Shown piece after piece: positions 4,235 through 25,567 of a stretch of 34,413 bases of DNA. A model generated the notes under the pieces. It saw only the letters and a list, made by a program, of their open reading frames with translations. It searched no databases and was not told where the DNA came from. The DNA lies in assembly GCA_017849315.1 (NCBI GenBank), contig JAFIHQ010000105.1, forward strand, positions 1 to 34,413. Reading direction: 5' to 3'. This stretch comes from Treponema sp. Lineage in GTDB: Bacteria; Spirochaetota; Spirochaetia; Treponematales; Rectinemataceae. Numbering within the stretch: the stretch's first letter is position 1; each line of letters begins with the position of its first letter. Made by a program: the position numbers and the translations under genes.

Positions 4235-7200
4235 TTACACCGATCTTGACGAACAAAACGTTTTTTGCGTCAGTTCATCGGCGATCATCTCTGCCTGTTT
4301 GAGCACAGTTTCTGTCGCTAGCGCCTGCATATCTGGCGGATAGCCGTACTGTCGCAGCGTGCGCTTAACCATCACCTTGAGCCTTGCCTTCACGCTTTCC
4401 TTTATGGTCCAATCGATTGTGGCGTTCTGCCTTACCTTTTGATAGAGAACTATGGCGAGTTCCCGCAGTGTTTCCTTCTGCATCAACTCTTGTGCGCTCG
4501 TGTTATCCGCAATTGCAGTGTAAAAAGCATATTCATAGTCCGATAAACCCATCTCCGCCGGTTGCTTATCTATACGCTGAATTTCTTTGCTTAACTCGAT
4601 CAGTTCATCGATCACTTCGACAGCGGTGACGACCTTGTTGTAGTATCGCTGAAGAGACTCTTCCAGCATCTCCATAAGAGTATGGCTCTGCACTAGATTT
4701 TTCTTCATTCTCCCCTTGATCTCGTCGTTTAAAAGCTTCTTTAACACCTCCACTGCGATGTTTTGGTGCTCCATGTTCTTTACTTCTAGCAGGAATTCTT
4801 CAGAAAGGATGGAAATATCCGGTTTCTTTATACCGGCTGCATCAAAGACATCGATTACCTTTTCCGTGACCAAAGCCTGGTCGATAATTTGCTTGACGGT
4901 GGTCTCTATTTCTTCATCTGTTTTCCCACTTCCCGTGCTATCAAACTTCACCAGTCTGGCTTTCACCGCCTGATAGAACGCCACTTCTTCCTTGACTGCT
5001 GTCGCCCGCTCGTGTGGAATAGCGATGGCGAACGCCTTTGATAGGGCAGTAACTTCATCAACATAACGTTTTTTGCCGTCTTCAAGACCAAGAACATGAT
5101 CCTCGGCGGCGAGAATAATCGACAGGCGTTCTGAAGTGCTTGCGGTAAAATATCGCTGGTAATTGAATCCGTGAAACATCTGCGCAATGACTTCCAGCTT
5201 TTCAAGCATAACCTGAACAGCCTCTTCCTGAAGGACCGCAGGATCGCCCCTGCCGCCACTGTCAGCATAAAAGGCAAGCGCCTCTTTCAAATCAGCGGCA
5301 ATCCCGAGGTAATCCACGATCAGGCCACCAGGCTTGTCCTTATAGACCCTATTTACCCGCGCGATTGCCTGCATCAGTGTATGCCCTCTCATGGGCTTAT
5401 CAAGATACATAGTGTGAAGACATGGCACATCGAAGCCAGTGAGCCACATATCGCACACGATGACCAGTTTGAGTTCATCCTGCGGGTCTTTCATTCGCTC
5501 CGCCAGCATGCGCCGTTGTTCCTTTGTGGTGTGGTGCCGTGAAAGCTCAGGGCCATCCGATGATGCAGAGGTAATAACCACCTTGATGGAACCCTTTTTG
5601 AGGTCATCGTCCTGCCATTCTGGTCTTATTTTGATTATTTCATCATAGAGGCTGACGGCGATGAATCGAGACATCGCCACCACCATGGCTTTACCTTCAA
5701 AAGCCTGCTGGCGCTGCTCGAAATGAGACACAATATCTTTTGCAATGTGCCGAATTCGATCGCTGCTCCCTATCAGCGCTTCCAGCTGAGTCCATTTAGC
5801 CCTTGTCTTTTGTGTTTCGGCAAGTTCATCGAGTTTGAGTTCCTTATCCAGGTCGTTGATGAGTCTTTTCCCCTGTTCACTCAATTCGATTTTTGCGAGT
5901 CTGCTTTCGTAGTATATCTTCACGATGGCGCCGTCTTCCTGCGCTTGTGAGATGTCGTAGATGTCGACATAGTTACCAAAGACAGCTGGAGTGTTTCTAT
6001 CCTCTTTTTCTATTGGTGTACCCGTAAAACCGATATAGGTGGCATTGGGCAGGGCATCCCGCATGTACTTGGCAAAACCATACACGGTTTTTTTGCCAAC
6101 CACGTTTCCCTGTTCATCCTTTTCGTCTATCGTCTTTGCCCTGAAGCCATACTGGGTTCGATGAGCCTCATCGACGATTACCACGATGTTCCGTCTATCG
6201 GATAGCTGTGGATATATGTTACCCTCTTCCGGCTGGAACTTCTGAATCGTAGTAAAGACCACACCACCCGAGGCGACGTTGAGCAGTTCTTGTAAGTGTT
6301 CTCTATTCTCCGCCTGAACAGGATCCTGCCTGAGGAGTTGTTTTGAGGACGCAAAGGTATCGAAAAGCTGGTCATCCAGGTCGTTCCTGTCGGTAATGAC
6401 TAATATTGTTGGATTATCCAGCATTTGAATGATCTTGCCTGCAAAGAACACCATGGAAAGCGATTTTCCGCTTCCTTGCGTGTGCCATATCACGCCTCCC
6501 TTATGATCTCCCACAGCCTGAGTACGCACACTGGCAAGTCCATAATTCTCAGGGGCTTCTTTGACACTACCGGCCTCCTTTACGGCGGCATAGCCAGACG
6601 CCCGCAGGGTAGACTCCACAGCCTTATTTACCGCAAAATATTGATGATAGTAGGCCATCTTCTTGACAGTCTGAATGGATACGATACCAGTTTCTTTATC
6701 CTCTCTTTTGGATTTTTCAAACACGATAAAATGATGAATAAGGTCAAGAAGCGTTTTTTTGTTCAGCATGCCTCTGATAAGGGTTTCGAGCTGGCTTACC
6801 AGCCTGGATTCGTCCTTTGTGCCATCTATTGATTTCCACGCCATAAAATGACTGTAACCAGAGGAGATGGAGCCTGCCTTTGCCTCGAGCCCATCGGAGA
6901 TCACGATGAAGCCGTTATACGTAAATATGCCCGGAATCGTCTGTTTATAGGTTTGAATCTGGTTAAAGGCGGATCGCACTGTTGCCTGTTCATCTGCCGG
7001 GTTCTTCAACTCCATGACGACAAGTGGAATGCCGTTGACAAATAGGACGATGTCGGGACGCTTGTTGTTGTTACCTTCTATAACGGTATATTGATTGACC
7101 ACTAGAAATTCGTTGTTTTCTGGATTCTTATAATCGATGAGCCATACCAAATCTCCCCGTTCTACACCATCCCTTCTGTACTGTACCCGAATTCCTTCCG

Positions 7201-7483
7201 TGAGCATTCTGTGAAAGGCTTCGTTGTTTACAATGAGTTCTTGCGACCCAAAGCGCTGAATCTGCTTGATAGCATCGTCCTGCGCATCGACAGGAACTCC
7301 CGGGTTGATGCGTCCAATAGCGTTCCTCAGCCTTTGTAGTAAAAGCACTTCCTCCAAAGATTGCCTCTCCGCCCTATCCCCATCCGGCGCAATATCGGGA
7401 CCGGCACAGCACTGGTAGCCGTTTCCATCAAGGAGTTCGATGGCAAATTCTTCGATATCAGATTCGGTGATTCTGGAAGCCAT
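4235..7483 (-). CDS. hsdR: Type I restriction endonuclease, R subunit (HsdR)
   Basis: N-terminal PD-(D/E)xK-like motif PDIVLFVNGIPLVVMELK, helicase motif I HTQGSGKS, DEAH box VIVDEAHRTQ, and the long helical C-terminal domain typical of HsdR. I prefer the ATG at 7483 (AAGAGGG SD 4-5 nt upstream) over the ORF-track ATG at 7504. Confidence 0.95.
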   Translation of the reverse strand: MASRITESDIEEFAIELLDGNGYQCCAGPDIAPDGDRAERQSLEEVLLLQRLRNAIGRINPGVPVDAQDDAIKQIQRFGSQELIVNNEAFHRMLTEGIRVQYRRDGVERGDLVWLIDYKNPENNEFLVVNQYTVIEGNNNKRPDIVLFVNGIPLVVMELKNPADEQATVRSAFNQIQTYKQTIPGIFTYNGFIVISDGLEAKAGSISSGYSHFMAWKSIDGTKDESRLVSQLETLIRGMLNKKTLLDLIHHFIVFEKSKREDKETGIVSIQTVKKMAYYHQYFAVNKAVESTLRASGYAAVKEAGSVKEAPENYGLASVRTQAVGDHKGGVIWHTQGSGKSLSMVFFAGKIIQMLDNPTILVITDRNDLDDQLFDTFASSKQLLRQDPVQAENREHLQELLNVASGGVVFTTIQKFQPEEGNIYPQLSDRRNIVVIVDEAHRTQYGFRAKTIDEKDEQGNVVGKKTVYGFAKYMRDALPNATYIGFTGTPIEKEDRNTPAVFGNYVDIYDISQAQEDGAIVKIYYESRLAKIELSEQGKRLINDLDKELKLDELAETQKTRAKWTQLEALIGSSDRIRHIAKDIVSHFEQRQQAFEGKAMVVAMSRFIAVSLYDEIIKIRPEWQDDDLKKGSIKVVITSASSDGPELSRHHTTKEQRRMLAERMKDPQDELKLVIVCDMWLTGFDVPCLHTMYLDKPMRGHTLMQAIARVNRVYKDKPGGLIVDYLGIAADLKEALAFYADSGGRGDPAVLQEEAVQVMLEKLEVIAQMFHGFNYQRYFTASTSERLSIILAAEDHVLGLEDGKKRYVDEVTALSKAFAIAIPHERATAVKEEVAFYQAVKARLVKFDSTGSGKTDEEIETTVKQIIDQALVTEKVIDVFDAAGIKKPDISILSEEFLLEVKNMEHQNIAVEVLKKLLNDEIKGRMKKNLVQSHTLMEMLEESLQRYYNKVVTAVEVIDELIELSKEIQRIDKQPAEMGLSDYEYAFYTAIADNTSAQELMQKETLRELAIVLYQKVRQNATIDWTIKESVKARLKVMVKRTLRQYGYPPDMQALATETVLKQAEMIADELTQKTFCSSRSV

Positions 7484-7496
7484 TTTGCCCTCTTTT

Positions 7497-7561
7497 TGTC
7501 TCATCTATGAGACATATCTCGTTTTGTGTCTCACAAAATGCATTCCGTGAGACACAAAACG
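7497..7561. repeat. Nested inverted repeats built on TGAGACA/TGTCTCA, immediately upstream of hsdR
   Basis: TGTCTCA (7497-7503) / TGAGACA (7508-7514). Perfect 15-bp arms CGTTTTGTGTCTCAC (7520-7534) / GTGAGACACAAAACG (7547-7561) around a 12-nt loop that contains the palindrome AATGCATT. No U-tract follows on either strand. Confidence 0.9.
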
Positions 7562-7685
7562 GTCCCAAAATGAGAAATATATGCTAAATTCTTTCTACTC
7601 CTAACATCTTGCGTAAGTAATATAACTTGCACTGTATCTCTACTGTTGTTCTTCAGAAATTCAAATACAAATTCATCAACATTGG

Positions 7686-8330
7686 TCATTCCTTGTCCTC
7701 CTTAAAAGCCTTCAGCTCTGTTAGATATGCATTATAATCAACATAAAACAAGATTTCACTCGCAGAATAAGAATAGTCCCCCATATCAAAATCACCATAA
7801 CTTTCATCCAATAAGTCATTGAACTCTGCATTATCATCAAATGATATTTTATCCTTATATGTTTCAATATGTCGTCTAGGATTCTTATTCTCAAAAGCTC
7901 TAATAAGAAATGTAGCTATTATTTCCGTTGAATCTATAAGGAATTCTCTTGTCATTTCATCAACTCTACTATTGCGCTCTTTCAGCTCTTCTAACTCTTT
8001 GCCATGTGCCGTTATCCCTATTTCATTTCTAAGATTACCCATCTCTTGACCAATGCTTGCTAATGCAGTAGAAATATGATTCACCAATTCTTGATTGGCG
8101 TATCCAAGTGAATTAAATGCTTGTTTCAAAATTTTATTAGTAGTTGCATTTTCTTCAATTGAAATGTTTTTTAATTTACATATTTCTTTACAGATTGTTT
8201 CAAGTAGCGACTTTGCATTCTCAAATGCCGTGCTAAAGTCGTCCTGAATGTAGGTATCTATTCTTTGAGTATAAATTCGTAAATCAGACCATCGTCCATA
8301 TTGTTCAATTACTTGATTGAGCTTTTTCAT
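7686..8330 (-). CDS. Abi_C-like (abortive-infection C-terminal domain) protein embedded between hsdS and hsdR
   Basis: 214 aa. The central segment IGQEMGNLRNEIGITAHGK...EFLIDSTEIIATFLIRAFE resembles the RN..G.AHG signature plus following helix of the Abi_C family. Acidic, aromatic C-terminal tail. Very AT-rich (14/60 GC in 8101-8160). Confidence 0.6.
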   Translation of the reverse strand: MKKLNQVIEQYGRWSDLRIYTQRIDTYIQDDFSTAFENAKSLLETICKEICKLKNISIEENATTNKILKQAFNSLGYANQELVNHISTALASIGQEMGNLRNEIGITAHGKELEELKERNSRVDEMTREFLIDSTEIIATFLIRAFENKNPRRHIETYKDKISFDDNAEFNDLLDESYGDFDMGDYSYSASEILFYVDYNAYLTELKAFKEDKE

Positions 8331-8353
8331 AGTTTAGCAATCCTCAATCAATC

Positions 8354-9547
8354 TCATAATTTCACCCTGACCTCTCTGCTCATCAGTTTTGGAAGCAAAG
8401 TGTCACGAAGTTTTTCAAGAGTGCGGATTTGCATTTTATTGCATAAAATCCTCTTGATTATTGGATTCGACTTGGAAGAAAAAAGTTCAAGCTTACTTTT
8501 GGGAGGTATACGCATCTTTATTCTTAGTGTTTCTACTGGGCTTAAATTCGGTTGGGCAGTTCCTTTGGCCATTTCTTCTAGTAAACGTTTTGTCTTCTCC
8601 ATTCTAAAGTATATGTATGTGTATGCCATATCTCTACTATTTTTGGCAAAAAGTTTCGCAACTCTCTGATTCAATAGAGCATTATTCACGTCAACAAGAC
8701 AACACCTTCCAACATTACCGGTAAGCGACAATAAAATATCGCCAGGTTTCAAATAGCAATAATTCGGCATTCTTGAAGGAATATCATTTATCTTATCAGT
8801 CTTTGAAATATCTAGATGGCCATCCTGTACAGATTTAATTGTTATTAAGCAATACTTGCCTAACTCTGTGAATAAGTCTGACTTAAATGGAAAACCCGGA
8901 AGAATATCTATCATATTAGCTATTGTTCCTTCCTCCCACTTCTCATCCGCCTCTTCAATAAACCACTGCCGAAACAGCGCCTCTGCCATCTGCTCCAATG
9001 TATGGTTTTCCCGGTTAAGCAAGTCTATCTTGTCGTCAAGACTGGAGAGCACAGAGGCAATGGTGCGCTGTTCGGGAAGTGGAGGAAGAAGAATTTCAAG
9101 ACTTTCAATATCTGCTGGTCTTAATGAAGGGTATGCTGAAGTTGATGCTTCTGCGATTATATCTAAATATTCTACAATTTCATGAGATGTCAGAAAATAA
9201 TAAATGAAAAAAGAATCTGCCTCTTTCTGATTTGTCTCAATTACTATAAATCCTGTTGAAACTACAAGGTTTGGAGGAGGATTTTTGATTATTCCATAAT
9301 GTCTTTGAATAGGCCTTACTGTTGAATAAATAATATCTTTATCTTTTACAAGTCTTTTTGCTCGGCTTGGTGCATCAGATAATAAAAGTTCCTGATAGCA
9401 ATCAACCTTCCCTCGCGTTATTGAGCTAGTATCTAAGTATAATATTTTATTTTGTGAATATTCATTATCAATGCTATTTCTATTTATTTCCGCAACCTCT
9501 CCCAGCTTGCATTCCCTCCATCCTTCCGGTATTCTGTCAGCCATCAT
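8354..9547 (-). CDS. hsdS: Type I R-M specificity subunit (HsdS), two target-recognition domains
   Basis: Two variable TRDs separated by the conserved central helix LPPLPEQRTIASVLSSLDDKIDLLNRENHTLEQMAEALFRQWF, with a matching C-terminal helix ...IRTLEKLRDTLLPKLMSREV. The start overlaps the upstream hnh stop (ATGA). Confidence 0.9.
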   Translation of the reverse strand: MMADRIPEGWRECKLGEVAEINRNSIDNEYSQNKILYLDTSSITRGKVDCYQELLLSDAPSRAKRLVKDKDIIYSTVRPIQRHYGIIKNPPPNLVVSTGFIVIETNQKEADSFFIYYFLTSHEIVEYLDIIAEASTSAYPSLRPADIESLEILLPPLPEQRTIASVLSSLDDKIDLLNRENHTLEQMAEALFRQWFIEEADEKWEEGTIANMIDILPGFPFKSDLFTELGKYCLITIKSVQDGHLDISKTDKINDIPSRMPNYCYLKPGDILLSLTGNVGRCCLVDVNNALLNQRVAKLFAKNSRDMAYTYIYFRMEKTKRLLEEMAKGTAQPNLSPVETLRIKMRIPPKSKLELFSSKSNPIIKRILCNKMQIRTLEKLRDTLLPKLMSREVRVKL

Positions 9548-10095
9548 GCCTCTCCTTCCACACGCAGATCCAGGTCAAGTACCGACAGTCTTTTTCCTCC
9601 GCAGTTGCTGTCCAGAGTTCCATTGCACTGGTGGCAGTAGTAAATGGTCTTCAGGTATTTCTTTTCAAGAAGCTCTGGGATGATGTCTGATGTGTTTTCA
9701 TCGGGATATAGCTCCTCGTAAAAGTGGTACAGTCCCTTCGTGCCCTTCCTAGAGTTGCAGGTTCTGCATGCCCATATCTGGTTGTGTATACCTTGGATCC
9801 GATCGCAGGTGGAACAGCGTTCGTTGATATTGAGTGAACGAGGAACAATGTGTTCCCAGCTCAAGCCGCTGGTGCTATCGCAGTAGATGCATTGTTTCTC
9901 CATTTCCACGAGCTGCCGGTCTTCCCGCAGTATTTCTGACCATTTCTTTTCATCGTTTTTCAATTCGCGAAAGGTTTTCTTGATAAAACCATACGACGTT
10001 GCCTTTGCATCCAGGCCAAAGGCGCTCTTTGCGATGATCTTTGCATATTGATAATAGATAAGGTCTCGTATTGTCTGTACTTCTCTATCAGGCAT
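9544..10095 (-). CDS. HNH endonuclease with four CxxC motifs (zinc-finger HNH), embedded in the R-M operon
   Basis: CIYCD...LSWEHIVPRS...HNQIWACRTCNSRKG is an HNH core. CxxC pairs: CIYC, CSTC, CRTC, CHQC. GGGAGG SD 6 nt upstream. Overlaps the ORF6N stop by 8 nt and the hsdS start by 4 nt. Confidence 0.8.
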   Translation of the reverse strand: MPDREVQTIRDLIYYQYAKIIAKSAFGLDAKATSYGFIKKTFRELKNDEKKWSEILREDRQLVEMEKQCIYCDSTSGLSWEHIVPRSLNINERCSTCDRIQGIHNQIWACRTCNSRKGTKGLYHFYEELYPDENTSDIIPELLEKKYLKTIYYCHQCNGTLDSNCGGKRLSVLDLDLRVEGEA

Positions 10096-10438
10096 AACAA
10101 GCCTCCCGCTTAATACTAACTTTTATCGCTGTTTCACTATGCAGAACAGTGGAAAGCATTGCTGCACCCTGCTCTGTAAATGCGTAGGGAAGATAGCGCC
10201 TGCCGCCCCAACTTGAGGTCACAATTTGTGACCTCAAGATTCCCATTTCAGATTCATTAAGCTGAAACATGAATTCAAGAGGAAATCGTTCTCTGTTTCG
10301 TTTTACTGCTTGATTCAACACCTTCGTTTCTACACCATAAAGCGCAGATAGATCTTCATCCAGCATCACCTGTACTCCACGAATTGTGTATATCCTGTTT
10401 TGAATATCTTCAACGGACACAAGTTCGTTTTCACTCAT
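10088..10438 (-). CDS. ORF6N-domain (KilA-N/Bro-N-related DNA-binding) protein
   Basis: [45 protein letters not shown]...EM is the characteristic ORF6N domain sequence. The start overlaps the hsdM stop (ATGA). Confidence 0.8.
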
Positions 10439-11979
10439 TTTATCTCAATCTTCTTCAAATTTTCCATTATGAGCCTGTTTAGTCGTTCTTCCTCTTTTAG
10501 CTCCTCCTCGAACTCTGCCTTTAACGCTGCAAAACGCTCATTAAAGTCAAAATCGTCTTCTTCATCGGGTAACCCCACATAGCGGCCGGGAGTGAGTACG
10601 TAATCCAGCTCTCGCACCCTTTCGATAGACGCAGAATTGCAGAACCCCTTTACGTCCTGGTATGTGCCGTTGGGATTTCGCCAGTTGTGATAGGTTGATG
10701 CAATCTTTTCTATGTCTTCGTTAGAAAACTCGAGCGTTCTGCGATTGATAAGGTGTCCCATGTTTCGGGCATCGATAAACAGAATCTCGTCGGTGCGGGT
10801 ACGATAGCCACCATTTGCCTTGTTCCTGCTGACAAACCATAGGCAGGCGGGTATCTGGGTGTTCAAGAATAATTTTGGAGGAAGGTTAACAATGCAGTCA
10901 ACGAGACGATCTTCAATGATCTGCTTCCGTATCTCTCCCTCACCTGATGTCTTCGAGGTAAGCGAGCCTTTTGCAAGTACAAACCCGGCAGCGCCGCTCG
11001 GGGCAAGATGATAAATGAAGTGCTGCACCCACGCGTAGTTTGCATTTCCTTCAGGCGGTACGCCATACTTCCATCTTCCATCTTTCCTGAGTAACTCCCC
11101 ACTCCAGTCGCTGTCGTTAAAAGGTGGATTGGCAAGCACATAATCCGCTTTCAAGTCCTTATGCGCATCGTTTAAAAATGAGCCTTCGTTGTTCCATTTG
11201 ACCTGTGAGCTATCTATTGCTCGTATGGCGAGGTTCATCTTGCAGAGCCGCCACGTGGTGAGGTTGCTCTCCTGACCATAGATAGAGATATCATTTACTC
11301 TGCCCTGATGTTGGGCGACAAACTTTTCCGACTGCACGAACATCCCGCCAGAGCCACAGCAGGGATCGAACACCCTACCTTTGTAGGGTTCGAGCATCTC
11401 GACAAGTAACTCTACAACGCTCCGGGGAGTATAGAATTGGCCTCCCTTCTTTCCTTCTGCAAGGGCAAACTCGCCAAGAAAGTACTCAAACACATGGCCC
11501 AGTACATCGGCGCTTCTGGCTTTTGCATCGTGCATGGCTATATTGCTGATAAGGTCAATAAGCCCACCAAGGTTCGCAGGGTCAAGATTGCCCCGGGCAT
11601 ATACCTTTGGCAGCACATCCTTGAGCGATGGATTCTCCTTTTCGATGGCATCCATGGCTGCATCAACAATGGTACCTATCGTGGGTTTCTTCGCCTCCGC
11701 TTGCAGGAATGACCAGCGAGCTTCATGAGGAACAAAAAAGACGTTCTCCGCACGATACTCATCTCTATCTTCGGGGTCTGCTCCCGCATACTCCCCTTCG
11801 CCTTTTTTCAGCTTCTCGTACAGGCTTTCAAAGGCATCCGATATGTACTTGAGAAAAATTAAGCCCAGAACGACATGCTTGTATTCCGCAGCATCTATGT
11901 TTTTTCTGAGCTTGTCAGCAGCCTTCCAGAGCTGTTTTTCCAGTGGTTCTTCTTGCCAGTTATCGTTTTTCTTTGCCAT
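10435..11979 (-). CDS. hsdM: Type I R-M N6-adenine DNA methyltransferase subunit (HsdM)
   Basis: HsdM_N-like N-terminus (LWKAADKLR...[16 protein letters not shown]), AdoMet motif [13 protein letters not shown], and catalytic motif IV LANPPFN. Confidence 0.95.
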
Positions 11980-11989
11980 AGTATACTCT

Positions 11990-12018
11990 ATAATGAATCA
12001 ACTCTTAAGAACTGGCAA
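11990..12018 (-). promoter_or_regulatory. Putative hsdM promoter (near-leaderless arrangement)
   Basis: On the minus strand: TTGCCA (12018-12013), 17-nt spacer, CATTAT (11995-11990). The hsdM ATG (11979) lies only 10 nt after the -10 and there is no SD. Confidence 0.35.
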
Positions 12019-12062
12019 CCAGATATCTCGAAAATTCTGTTGTTCCTTACTTTTGCTTATAA

Positions 12063-12482
12063 GACGAGCAGGTCAAGGCAATAGTCACGTTCGAGGCAAA
12101 CAAACAGGAAATGAACCTCCAGCAGGTTGGAGAAGCCTTAAAAGAGGCTCTAGCGCACTATGGAGCCCCTTGTATATTCAATACTGATCAGGGCAGCCAG
12201 TTTACGTCGAATACGTTTATACATCTTCTCCAGGAACAGGGGATAAGAATCAGCATGGATGGCCGCGGCCGCTGGCGGGATAACGTGCATATCGAACGGC
12301 TCTGGAGGACGGTCAAGTACGAAGACATCTATCTCCAGGGCTATGAAAACGTACGGTCGTTAAAACGGGGCCTTGCTTCGTACTTTATAGTTTATAACCA
12401 GTATAGGTTCCATCAGAACCTGGACTACGAGACGCGCGACCACCGCTATCGTTCGTTTCAGGCAAAGGATTTGGTAGCATGA
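12063..12482 (+). mobile_element. IS3-family transposase (rve/integrase core) 3' remnant, 5'-truncated pseudogene
   Basis: ...CIFNTDQGSQFTS...ISMDGRGRWRDNVHIERLWRTVKYEDIYL...YNQYRFHQNLDY matches the C-terminal DDE region (D..GSQ; DN..IERLWR.LKYE) of IS3-family OrfB. The in-frame upstream sequence runs into a stop at 12060-12062. No N-terminal HTH, OrfA or first catalytic D region is present. Confidence 0.8.
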
Positions 12483-21354: not shown

Positions 21355-22284
21355 ATGAGCAACGCTACGTTTACTTTCAAAGATCCAGACGGCTTTGAGA
21401 TTTTTGTGTACAAGTGGTTCCCGGAAAACGAAAAGCCAAAGGCTGTGGTGCAAGTGGTGCACGGCATGGCAGAACACGCCCTGCGGTACGAGCGGTTTGC
21501 GAAGTTCCTCAATCAGGCGGGCTACGCTGTCTACGCTGATGACCACCGCGGTCACGGGAAGACGGCCAAGGAGCTCTCCAAGGCCGGAATTGGAGGAGTG
21601 GATAGCTGGAACGGAATGGTAAACGATGAACATCAGCTGACGCAGATTATCAAACAGGAAAACCCTGGACTGCCGGTCTTCCTCTTCGGACACAGCATGG
21701 GATCATTTATCTCTCAACGCTATATCGAGTTATGGGGATCAGAATTGAGCGGTGTCGTGCTCTCCGGTACGACAGGTCTCGCGGTGATTCCAAAAGAAGC
21801 AGAACCCATGTTTGCGCAAGCTGCTCAAGGTGCATCGAGGGACACGTATCCAGAAGGGCCAGGCCTTTTCGATAGCATGAATGCGGCGTTCGCGCCTGTA
21901 AAAACGCCTTTCGACTGGCTATCGCGGGACGAAGAAGAGGTCAAGAAGTATATTGATGATCCGTGGTGTGGCTTCGCATTCTCCAACGGCATGTTGTACG
22001 ACATGGCGCGGGGCATGTGGGAGTTCCTCGATCCCAACAACCAGGAATCTATACCCAAAAATCTGCCCGTGCTGATTATTGCAGGCGAGAAAGATCCTGT
22101 CGGGGCTAACAACGGCGTCAAGGTGCTATTTGACCGCTACAAAGAGCTCGGCATTAAGGATGTAAAACTCATCGTTTATCCGGGTGCAAGGCACGAAGTC
22201 CTGAACGAGATCAACCGCGACGAGGTGCAACGCGACGTTCAAAACTGGCTGGATGACCAGTTTAAACGAGTAAGTGCTTACTAG
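21355..22284 (+). CDS. Alpha/beta hydrolase (lysophospholipase / monoacylglycerol lipase-like)
   Basis: HGMAEH, nucleophile elbow GHSMGS, and C-terminal ..GARHE.LNE. Start set to ATG 21355 (AGGAGG SD) rather than 21334. Confidence 0.85.
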   Translation: MSNATFTFKDPDGFEIFVYKWFPENEKPKAVVQVVHGMAEHALRYERFAKFLNQAGYAVYADDHRGHGKTAKELSKAGIGGVDSWNGMVNDEHQLTQIIKQENPGLPVFLFGHSMGSFISQRYIELWGSELSGVVLSGTTGLAVIPKEAEPMFAQAAQGASRDTYPEGPGLFDSMNAAFAPVKTPFDWLSRDEEEVKKYIDDPWCGFAFSNGMLYDMARGMWEFLDPNNQESIPKNLPVLIIAGEKDPVGANNGVKVLFDRYKELGIKDVKLIVYPGARHEVLNEINRDEVQRDVQNWLDDQFKRVSAY

Positions 22285-25124: not shown

Positions 25125-25218
25125 GAATCGATTTTCATTCAAAAAACCTGCAAAGTTATAGGTTCGAGAGACCCTACCCCCTTGTACTCGCCCCAAGGCT
25201 TGTGCTAGCCTCAGTCCA

Positions 25219-25364
25219 CCGATGGAGGAGCGATCCCCAAGAGTACGGACCGGAGGCTTCGAGAGCCAAAGAGGGTGCCGGAAAGGGGAGGATCGCCGAA
25301 GGAGCAAGGCTTTCTCGAGGGCTTGTTCTTGGACGTCCGGGCTAATACCCGACGGCTGTCGCGG
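25219..25364 (+). promoter_or_regulatory. Lysine riboswitch (L-box) aptamer in the leader of asd-lysC-dapBAD
   Basis: CCGATGGAGGAGCGATCCCCAAGAGTACGG...GCCGGAAAGGGGAGGATCGCCGAAGGAGCAAGGC...GCTTGTTCTTGGACGTCCGGGCTAATACCCGACGGCTGTCGCGG aligns block for block with the B. subtilis lysC and T. maritima L-box cores as I recall them (GAGGxGCG..CAAGAGTA; GAAAGGGGAG..CGCCGAAG; TGG...; CTGTCxxGG), with compensating P2-P5 helices. It lies upstream of lysine-biosynthesis genes. Confidence 0.85.
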
Positions 25365-25567
25365 AAAATACATAGTTCCGCGGAGCGCCTGACGTATGCT
25401 TTTTACTGATAAGTGCATAGGTTGTATGTGGACTTGACTTGGATAGATGCTGGCCACGCCAGAATGTCAGAAACTGACACATCCAGTCCAAAATGACAAC
25501 ACAAGCACAGGAACAGTAAAGAGCTATCGTGGACCTCCTGAAGTACTGGCTTTAAGGAGAGGCCACG

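Follow-up and report, generated by a model that had tools for sequence, protein, structure and literature searches.

In the prr locus of Escherichia coli (prrA-prrB-prrC-prrD), which encodes a Type IC restriction-modification (R-M) system, prrC lies between the homologues of hsdS and hsdR. The PrrC protein is sequestered in the EcoprrI complex and is freed when Stp of phage T4 inhibits the enzyme (PMC3874165, PMC12707154). For HEPN genes embedded in R-M loci, AbiJ solos included, a second line of defence like that of PrrC has been proposed, and R-M operons are a preferred location of genes for AbiJ-type HEPN proteins without N-terminal domains (Anantharaman et al. 2013, PMC3710099). In Ronin, which consists of hsdMS and a small toxin, RonA, the toxin is a peptide held by HsdMS and the system is triggered by anti-restriction proteins. 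Genes embedded in Type I R-M systems have also been catalogued (Payne et al. 2024, bioRxiv 10.1101/2024.01.29.577857); 96.7% of them were co-oriented with the host system, Septu was embedded in only 0.7% of cases, and embedded systems were argued to function independently in general. Here we compare with these systems a Type I R-M locus of Treponema sp., found on a stretch of 34,413 nucleotides (contig JAFIHQ010000105.1, assembly GCA_017849315.1; hereafter the window, meaning that whole stretch), in which three further genes, encoding ORF6N, HNH and Abi_C proteins, lie among hsdM, hsdS and hsdR.

Of these three, only abiC is genuinely tied to the Type I enzyme, in a PrrC-like manner. The explanation which we consider probable, when taken as a whole, is that the locus is a single Type I R-M cassette, with all genes in one orientation, which is transferred between genomes as a unit, and that its six genes are not one integrated machine. 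The ORF6N gene would be a remnant and HNH an independent passenger, the two being unrelated cargo genes in the hsdM/hsdS junction, while abiC, in the hsdS/hsdR junction, would be tied to the enzyme.

The ORF list and the sequence (ORF, open reading frame) give the order hsdM, ORF6N, HNH, hsdS, abiC and hsdR on the minus strand between 4235 and 11979. hsdM (10435-11979, minus strand) encodes a Type I adenine methyltransferase subunit of 514 aa, which matched PF02384 (N6_Mtase, E 1.5e-109) and PF12161 (HsdM_N, E 1e-26) in a profile search and MTase_I of PADLOC (E 7e-210), and whose closest solved structure is 3khk (E 5e-142). hsdS (8354-9547, minus strand) encodes a specificity subunit of 397 aa with two target-recognition domains (TRDs); PF01420 (Methylase_S) was matched in two stretches and Specificity_I of PADLOC at E 9e-89. 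hsdR (minus strand) spans 4235-7504 as an ORF and 4235-7483 from a conserved start, MASRITE, giving a restriction/translocase subunit of 1082 aa. That start (ATG at 7483) follows from homologues and from the gene calls of L180 and L002, which include identical contigs. HsdR carries HSDR_N (E 1e-55), SWI2_SNF2 (E 2e-78), T1R_D3-like and T1RH-like_C domains and matches TIGR00348 (E 7e-182); its closest solved structure is HsdR of EcoR124 (E 7e-37), a Type IC enzyme. The ratio of nonsynonymous to synonymous substitution rates (dN/dS) was 0.06-0.08 for hsdM and 0.10 for hsdR. Judged by these matches, hsdM, hsdS and hsdR form a complete Type I R-M gene set and all three are intact. The G+C content is 33-36% across abiC and hsdS versus 47-50% in hsdM and hsdR.

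The junctions are tight. ATGA at 10435-10438 is common to the hsdM stop and the ORF6N start, the ORF6N stop and the HNH start overlap by 8 nt (ATGCCTGA, 10088-10095), ATGA at 9544-9547 is common to the HNH stop and the hsdS start, and 23 nt separate hsdS from abiC. The first-pass annotation of this DNA, made from the letters and an ORF list, had reported this gene order and strand, these overlaps and this gap, and all were reproduced. Its domain calls were borne out by the profile searches, ORF6N (E 1e-35) and Abi_C (33.9 bits against a cut-off of 24) clearly, and HNH with an HNH_5 match under the Pfam gathering score.

To judge how each extra gene is related to the R-M system, its genomic neighbourhood was surveyed. 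For abiC (7686-8330, minus strand; 214 aa), a metagenome scan with an alignment of the AbiC family returned 80 loci at 42-64% identity, except one copy identical to that of the window and one distant match at 29%. At least one hsd gene was adjacent in 78 of the 80. Where at least 400 nt were available upstream, the hsdS stop lay within 150 nt of abiC in 54 of 64 loci, typically at -8 to +23 nt. Where at least 400 nt were available downstream, hsdR followed abiC directly, and typically overlapped it, in 33 of 59 loci; in a further 16 it lay 0.4-6.8 kb downstream, past inserted genes. HNH was present in only one of the 80, which belongs to the window's own lineage. The minimal form of the cassette, hsdM-hsdS-abiC-hsdR with an abiC/hsdR overlap of 8 nt, is found in L189 and L190. 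Cultured hosts of abiC include Geosporobacter ferrireducens, an isolate with the order hsdM, KilA-N, hsdS, abiC, hsdR in which all junctions overlap, and Picosynechococcus PCC 7003, a plasmid of which carries hsdM, MNT, DUF86, hsdS, an abiC-like gene (29% identical) and hsdR.

Sequence identities of AbiC are correlated with those of HsdM (Spearman rho 0.76) and HsdR (0.65), much as those of HsdM and HsdR are with each other (0.74), so that abiC co-diverges with both subunits. The dependence is evidently one-way. abiC is nearly confined to Type I loci and the enzyme works without abiC, which, as far as gene distribution tells, is the pattern of PrrC. HsdR homologues 58-69% identical to that of the window are common on plasmids of Acinetobacter, Myroides and Moraxella, and AbiC itself is almost absent from the plasmid database (3 weak matches).

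AbiC is a solo AbiJ/Abi_C-type HEPN protein. Residues 66-143 match PF14355 (Abi_C), and R101, N102, H109 and G110 were invariant among 18 aligned sequences (RN-x6-HG, in the context RNEIGxT[SA]HG), the homologues being 57-84% identical to the window protein. SadR of Staphylococcus aureus, an Abi_C-domain protein, is a demonstrated single-stranded RNA ribonuclease (RNase), in which both RNase activity and phage defence depend on the motif RNEYGDAH, and the Abi_C HEPN motif has been defined as R-polar-X(2-6)-H (PMC13590631). With an X of 6 in AbiC and 5 in SadR, both proteins fit the family range. Because RN-x6-HG is invariant and fits the motif essential in SadR, AbiC is predicted to be an RNase. 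abiC had a dN/dS of 0.16-0.24, and the match to the AbiJ model of PADLOC was weak (E 0.004). Outside the Abi_C domain, the AbiC clade has conserved N-terminal (residues 1-60) and C-terminal (164-213) modules of its own, which distinguishes it from SadR and AbiJ, as does its attachment to the hsdS/hsdR junction; SadR and AbiJ are encoded away from R-M loci and function as single genes. A P-loop or ABC NTPase domain found no family match in AbiC in Pfam, NCBIfam or PADLOC, a profile search of PDB sequences with AbiC gave nothing relevant, and no experimental work on the abiC family was found in the literature.

The likeness to EcoprrI/PrrC is one of arrangement. In both, a gene for a HEPN-type RNase (predicted in the case of AbiC) occupies the hsdS/hsdR junction, the accessory gene is optional for the R-M enzyme, and the HsdR of the window is nearest to a Type IC enzyme among solved structures. 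Like PrrC and RloC, the AbiC family is rarely seen outside Type I hsd operons. AbiC differs from them in having only 214 aa without the N-terminal ABC-type NTPase, and its HEPN domain belongs to the AbiJ/Abi_C clade rather than the PrrC/RloC clade; a check for the C-terminal HEPN motif of the PrrC/RloC type (R-x4-6-H) found R101-N102-x6-H109, again with assignment to the AbiJ clade and with a fold search that was not significant. abiC thus combines a PrrC-like genomic behaviour (same junction, nearly always embedded, co-diverging) with the lack of PrrC's regulatory ATPase.

By analogy with PrrC, AbiC could be a latent RNase that provides a second, abortive line of defence. It would be silent while the R-M enzyme is intact and would be released or activated once the enzyme is inhibited or overwhelmed by phage. 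A more specific version, in which AbiC is an ATPase-less counterpart of PrrC that docks on the Type I enzyme via residues 164-213 and stays inactive until Ocr, ArdA or Stp-like factors disable the enzyme, is offered tentatively, as plausible but short of probable. The concept of a toxic effector held by Type I subunits and freed by anti-restriction proteins would be shared with Ronin, which differs in lacking hsdR and in having a 61-aa membrane peptide as effector, whereas the window locus has a full hsdR. If AbiC does guard Type I restriction, the single well-studied example of abortive infection coupled to R-M would be extended to a much smaller and more widespread effector, which in anaerobes and cyanobacteria would act as a minimal guard of Type I restriction, and the question would be raised of how such a protein stays silent.

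Several points weigh against this account. The latency of AbiC, its binding to the Type I enzyme and the trigger are all inferred, and AbiC does not have the ABC-ATPase domain that regulates PrrC. When the AbiC model was compared with the PDB by Foldseek, nothing significant was returned; HEPN proteins (5yep_C, 1wty_A and 7ae6_B) were only among the weak matches (E 0.4-2.6), and the catalytic loop of the model is of low confidence. The Type I subfamily has no need of abiC, as the hsdS/hsdR junction is empty in L001 and holds a TIR-STAND gene in L014, and plasmid relatives with HsdR 61-69% identical hold a DUF2939 or PLD-like gene there. Finally, a single gene suffices for SadR to function (PMC13590631), so that abiC too might do without the R-M enzyme.

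This last point leads to the best-surviving alternative, namely that abiC is an autonomous single-gene abortive-infection RNase of the SadR/AbiJ kind, which sits in the hsd operon for co-expression or co-transfer only. SadR defends as a single gene, and most Abi_C proteins (2,257 of 2,815) have no N-terminal domains and are widespread (PMC13590631). The general independence of embedded systems argued by Payne et al. and the functioning of the Type I subfamily with other occupants, or none, at the hsdS/hsdR junction point the same way. An independent system would nevertheless be expected to be common outside its host system, as Septu is, whereas abiC is next to hsd genes in nearly all loci surveyed and in all isolate examples. 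Furthermore, abiC co-diverges with HsdM and HsdR, the N- and C-terminal modules are conserved outside the Abi_C domain, and no antitoxin-like partner is conserved next to abiC. Autonomy of abiC is therefore a real but rather unlikely alternative to an AbiC that is tied to the Type I enzyme.

The mobility of the cassette was revealed by comparison with sister cassettes. A blastn search of the window against L090 and L094 gave 93-95% nucleotide identity over 10109-12063, 9495-10095 and 4254-9094, with unrelated flanks, and in L090 the homology ceases with the stop codon of hsdR. Homology to sister cassettes in another genomic context thus sets the limits of the mobile Type I R-M cassette (minus strand) at 4254-12063. 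L090-L099 carry hsdM, ORF6N, HNH, hsdS, abiC, a 52-codon ORF and hsdR between other flanking genes, and these many contigs encode a protein 99% identical to the AbiC of the window. The TRD1 region of hsdS (approximately 9095-9494) has no nucleotide homology to the L090 sister in blastn, while the surrounding sequence is 95% identical; on this alignment TRD1 has been swapped relative to the sister cassette. HsdS is also only 35% identical to HsdS of L002. The synonymous divergence (dS) from L090 was 0.024 for abiC versus about 0.22 for hsdM, HNH and hsdR, and the 52-codon ORF showed zero synonymous differences. A TRD1 without homology and a near-identical abiC, against a dS of about 0.22 elsewhere, indicate recent recombination inside the cassette.

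Comparison with the sister cassette also explains the state of the ORF6N gene (10088-10438, minus strand), which encodes 116 aa with a KilA-N-like DNA-binding domain (PF10543; PDLC04869, E 2e-50). The window protein covers positions 9-117 of the 306 of the PDC-S05 profile of PADLOC, whereas the 292-aa ORF6N protein of L090 covers positions 9-301 (E 4e-126), and a gap of 109 nt separates its gene from HNH. By the blastn coordinates, 657 bp of L090 (7570-8226) are missing from the window. A three-way junction alignment places the deletion junction at 10096-10112 (minus strand), with microhomology TATTCAG/TATCCAG, and the breakpoint lies just upstream of the ribosome-binding site of HNH, whose Shine-Dalgarno sequence, GGAGG, is kept. 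The deletion removed 176 residues from the C-terminus of ORF6N, together with most of the 109-nt spacer.

The 8-nt overlap of ORF6N with HNH is therefore a by-product of this deletion and no sign of translational coupling or of component status. As the alignment reads, the window gene retains only the 5' third of a defence-candidate gene of the PDC-S05 type. It shares with PDC-S05 its N-terminal ORF6N domain and differs in consisting of the first 116 residues only, where full-length members have about 292-306 residues and a C-terminal domain (approximately 177-306). Most likely the truncated gene is non-functional, or at most encodes a bare DNA-binding domain. Weighing against this, the exact truncated protein occurs on 16 contigs, a 92% identical copy is present in L002, and dN/dS was 0.31-0.33 (few changes), so that a residual function is possible.

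The C-terminal domain of the full-length ORF6N protein had no sequence match in Pfam or PDB and only a weak match to NsnC of PADLOC. No PDC-S05 member with a tested phenotype was found in the literature, where the papers that name PDC-S05 appear, to judge by their titles and abstracts, to be surveys, and no paper containing both 'ORF6N' and 'type I restriction' was found in the library searched. Of three ORF6N relatives sampled on long contigs, one is next to a helicase gene, one next to a Fic gene and one between dehydrogenase genes; all three are outside R-M loci.

The HNH gene (9544-10095, minus strand), which occupies the hsdM/hsdS slot, encodes a stand-alone Zn-ribbon HNH nuclease of 183 aa. 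Its HNH_5 match (E 1.7e-5) reached 25.1 bits, under the Pfam gathering score of 27.5, and there were weak matches to PtuB (E 9e-6 to 6e-3, PADLOC) and IscB. In a 19-sequence alignment C69, C72, H82, C94, C97, H104, N105, C110, C113 and N114 were invariant, and the pattern CxxC...H...HN...CxxCN was kept throughout. The AlphaFold model (predicted local distance difference test score, pLDDT, 79) had its best Foldseek matches in the HNH domains of Cas9, IscB, Cap5 and SspE, with a probability of at most 0.97 and E of about 0.02. HNH is thus predicted from model and alignment to be a Cas9/IscB-like nuclease, with the catalytic and Zn-binding residues on a beta-beta-alpha fold. The gene is intact and under purifying selection (dN/dS 0.09-0.13). 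The weak PtuB profile matches are a likeness to Septu, in which a PtuA ATPase is paired with the HNH protein PtuB. The difference is that the window cassette has no PtuA-type ATPase and that the HNH fold is nearest to the HNH domains of Cas9 and IscB.

When one genome for each GTDB species was scanned, 80 HNH loci (55-95% identity) were retrieved. Only five of them (L001-L004 and L014) have flanking hsd genes like those of the window, and these are also the five closest HNH sequences; in the other 75, HNH is without flanking hsd genes. The nearest neighbours of at least 100 aa fell into 147 Pfam families upstream and 102 downstream, mostly singletons and many metabolic. The commonest were ABC-type ATPases (about 6 of 73 upstream), four of which also match OLD-like TOPRIM. 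Homology of HNH ends at the borders of the ORF (200 nt compared on each side in the 80 loci). In the cassette lineage, every member (L001-L004, L014) has the HNH stop overlapping the start of hsdS. HNH is therefore a functional and long-standing resident of one cassette lineage. Since the gene stands by itself in most genomes, its product most likely functions independently, with only the transcription and translation signals of the operon in common.

The 183-aa HNH family is unusually conserved, being 55-95% identical over its full length across more than 10 phyla (Spirochaetota, Planctomycetota, Bacteroidota, Ignavibacteriota, Omnitrophota, Elusimicrobiota and others) and including a metagenome-assembled genome labelled archaeal. 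Its neighbours are unrelated and mostly housekeeping genes, and it has no strong match to a PADLOC model. A conserved non-coding element or mobile unit around HNH was considered and rejected, as similarity in the same 200-nt flanks was confined to close relatives. In the plasmid database HNH was nearly absent (1 weak match).

It is conceivable that ORF6N and HNH once formed a two-gene module, a DNA-binding sensor with a nuclease effector, which was inserted as a unit between hsdM and hsdS and has decayed in the window. In 5 of the 80 HNH loci (L001, L002, L024, L033 and L079) an ORF6N gene is found no more than 1.5 kb upstream of HNH and on the same strand, the gap being 109 nt in L001 as in L090, and in L033 the pair stands alone, with a gap of 97 nt, between an RF-1-domain gene and lgt. 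For these loci, and above all for the L033 pair between housekeeping genes, an ancestral ORF6N-HNH partnership may have existed, which counts to that extent against two unrelated cargo genes. The partnership is clearly not obligate. ORF6N is not nearby in 75 of the 80 HNH loci, the three sampled ORF6N relatives are without HNH, the slot holds ORF6N without HNH in L115 and L142, and HNH has another upstream gene in L003, L004 and L014. HNH has also remained under strong purifying selection after the truncation of ORF6N. A former module of this kind is accordingly judged unlikely.

In cassettes with related HsdM, the position between hsdM and HNH is held by full-length ORF6N (L001, L090), Fic/DOC (L003), Schlafen-HTH (L004) or GIY-YIG (L014). 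Among the 43 abiC cassettes in which the end of hsdM and hsdS are visible, hsdM and hsdS are joined directly in about 27, and the others have 0.3-3.7 kb inserted. The inserted genes include KilA-N (PDC-S22), ORF6N (PDC-S05), PDC-S13, a YhcG-type PD-(D/E)xK nuclease (PDC-S02), SoFic, an ABC ATPase with DUF3696 and GmrSD_N. Between abiC and hsdR are found Mrr_cat, RhuM, KwaB (in two loci with a preceding gene for a membrane protein), GmrSD, DUF6119, ABC-3C components, AAA_13 and others. On this distribution the hsdM/hsdS and hsdS/hsdR junctions act as cargo slots. Defence genes embedded in Type I loci have already been published (PrrC; Anantharaman 2013; Payne 2024), and the slots described here are nothing new in kind. 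The cargo resembles the guilt-by-embedding candidates (Payne, Hughes, Fineran, Jackson 2024), which are same-orientation genes nested in Type I R-M, BREX, DISARM and Hma loci; the ORF6N family is PDC-S05 and cargo of sister cassettes matches PDC-S02, -S13, -S22, -S42 and SoFic.

The hsdM/hsdS slot recurrently holds DNA-binding proteins, namely KilA-N (L103, L141, L187), ORF6N (L115, L142, L090, L001) and Bro-N/PDC-S13 (L150). These slot KilA-N, ORF6N and Bro-N proteins each carry an uncharacterised C-terminal domain.

Two further explanations fare worse. AbiC might serve the Type I enzyme as an accessory or regulatory subunit without catalytic activity, acting for example in HsdR loading or restriction alleviation, in keeping with its fixed position, its overlaps with hsdS and hsdR, its co-divergence and a HEPN fold that the fold search did not confirm. 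That is very improbable given that the HEPN catalytic R, N and H do not vary among homologues sharing 57-84% identity with the window protein, that the Abi_C match exceeds the Pfam gathering score and that related Type I enzymes work without abiC. Least probable of all, if only slightly, is that the six genes are one integrated, translationally coupled defence machine in which ORF6N, HNH and Abi_C serve the Type I enzyme as subunits or clients, for despite the co-orientation of all six, the start/stop overlaps of 4-8 nt, the HNH/hsdS overlap throughout the lineage and the recurrence of the six-gene order in L002, L180 and, with full-length ORF6N, L090-L099, the recurring copies are one cassette lineage (93-95% nucleotide identity) and not independent, the ORF6N/HNH overlap is a deletion scar where the sister cassette has a gap, related cassettes swap ORF6N for Fic, Schlafen or GIY-YIG and lack abiC in L001 and L014, HNH was found in only one of the 80 abiC loci, which is of the window's own lineage, homologues of HNH and ORF6N are mostly outside R-M loci, and co-orientation, being the rule for embedded genes, does not discriminate component from cargo.

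The first-pass annotation had taken the 4-8 nt overlaps to imply that the extra genes were components of the system, which does not hold for an overlap that arose from a 657-bp deletion. More generally, the locus shows that start/stop overlaps are insufficient to separate integrated accessories from passengers, because one of those seen here is a deletion scar and another connects hsdS with a gene that most genomes have by itself. The precedent of PrrC, which had been invoked for the embedded genes together, applies to abiC, given its linkage (78 of 80 adjacent to hsd; 54 of 64 with hsdS within 150 nt upstream), and not to HNH (5 of 80) or to the sampled ORF6N relatives (none of 3). Nor is the locus the undescribed module that had been supposed, as AbiJ solos in R-M operons (PMC3710099), embedded genes (Payne et al. 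2024) and ORF6N as PDC-S05 were already known.

The spacer between abiC and hsdR, put at 180 nt in the first-pass annotation, is 202 nt to the MASRITE start at 7483 and 181 nt to the upstream in-frame ATG; the palindrome reported in it is present. In most abiC cassettes abiC overlaps hsdR, and only the window's lineage has a spacer of about 200 nt. Within it lies a 52-codon ORF (7531-7689, minus strand), which overlaps the abiC stop by ATGA and has a strong Shine-Dalgarno sequence upstream. This ORF is absent from most abiC cassettes, has no family match in Pfam, NCBIfam or PADLOC and shows no obvious transmembrane stretch by eye. Compared with L002 it has 12 nonsynonymous changes to 1 synonymous, and the L002 copy stops after 38 codons. 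On these substitutions it is probably non-coding or a decayed remnant. Two other roles were rejected: a Ronin-like toxin or antitoxin, as there is no family match and the substitution pattern is unlike that of a selected protein, and the start of a downstream cargo gene, as the ORF is unlike the N-termini of cargo in other abiC/hsdR slots.

The palindromic element of the hsdR leader (7497-7561, no strand assigned) consists of a perfect 15-bp inverted repeat (arms 7520-7534 and 7547-7561) with a 12-nt loop and a second hairpin at 7497-7514. Four GTCTCA/TGAGAC hexamers are clustered in the spacer. Folded as RNA, the region has a free energy of -45.5 kcal/mol (z = -6.8 versus shuffles). Palindromes are kept upstream of hsdR in L002, the L090 group, L100 and L001. 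Because L001 is without abiC, the element belongs to the hsdR leader of the cassette lineage and not to abiC. No U-tract of the kind expected of an intrinsic terminator was found, and promoter-like matches (18) were not in excess of those in shuffled sequence (14.6 +/- 4.2). The element may be an operator, an RNA element or a small inserted hairpin. In L002 (5445-5660) the abiC-hsdR spacer has an extra insertion of about 130 nt bearing hairpins of its own, and this junction appears to accumulate palindromic insertions.

Outside the cassette, an rve-type transposase fragment (12111-12482, plus strand; rve_3 E 7.6e-12, rve E 7.6e-8), of which 123 aa are left, starts 48 nt beyond the hsdM-side border. 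It is probably the remnant of an insertion sequence at the insertion site. In L002 the segment 271-521, just upstream of hsdM, is an 83% match to the 3' end of an alpha/beta-hydrolase gene (window 22030-22280), which in the window sits 10 kb from the cassette. As this match is directly upstream of hsdM in L002, the 12.06-22.03 kb region of the window, which contains the rve remnant, RibD_C, GntR, PNP, amidohydrolase and nucleoside ABC transporter genes, is absent or relocated in L002. L181 (2130-5214) has the exact truncated ORF6N-HNH-hsdS arrangement with abiC and hsdR missing; hsdS is followed there by an ORF of 158 aa, an oppositely oriented gene for a pseudouridine synthase and one for a DDE transposase, and the arrangement is a disrupted copy of the cassette.

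Scans of the window for tRNA genes and Rfam families found no RNA gene in the R-M locus, and their sole match lay elsewhere. This is a lysine riboswitch at 25215-25396 (plus strand; RF00168, 85 bits) upstream of an asd-lysC-dapB-dapA operon (approximately 25.5-30.1 kb), and the riboswitch and the lysine-biosynthesis operon together show that the window is chromosomal.

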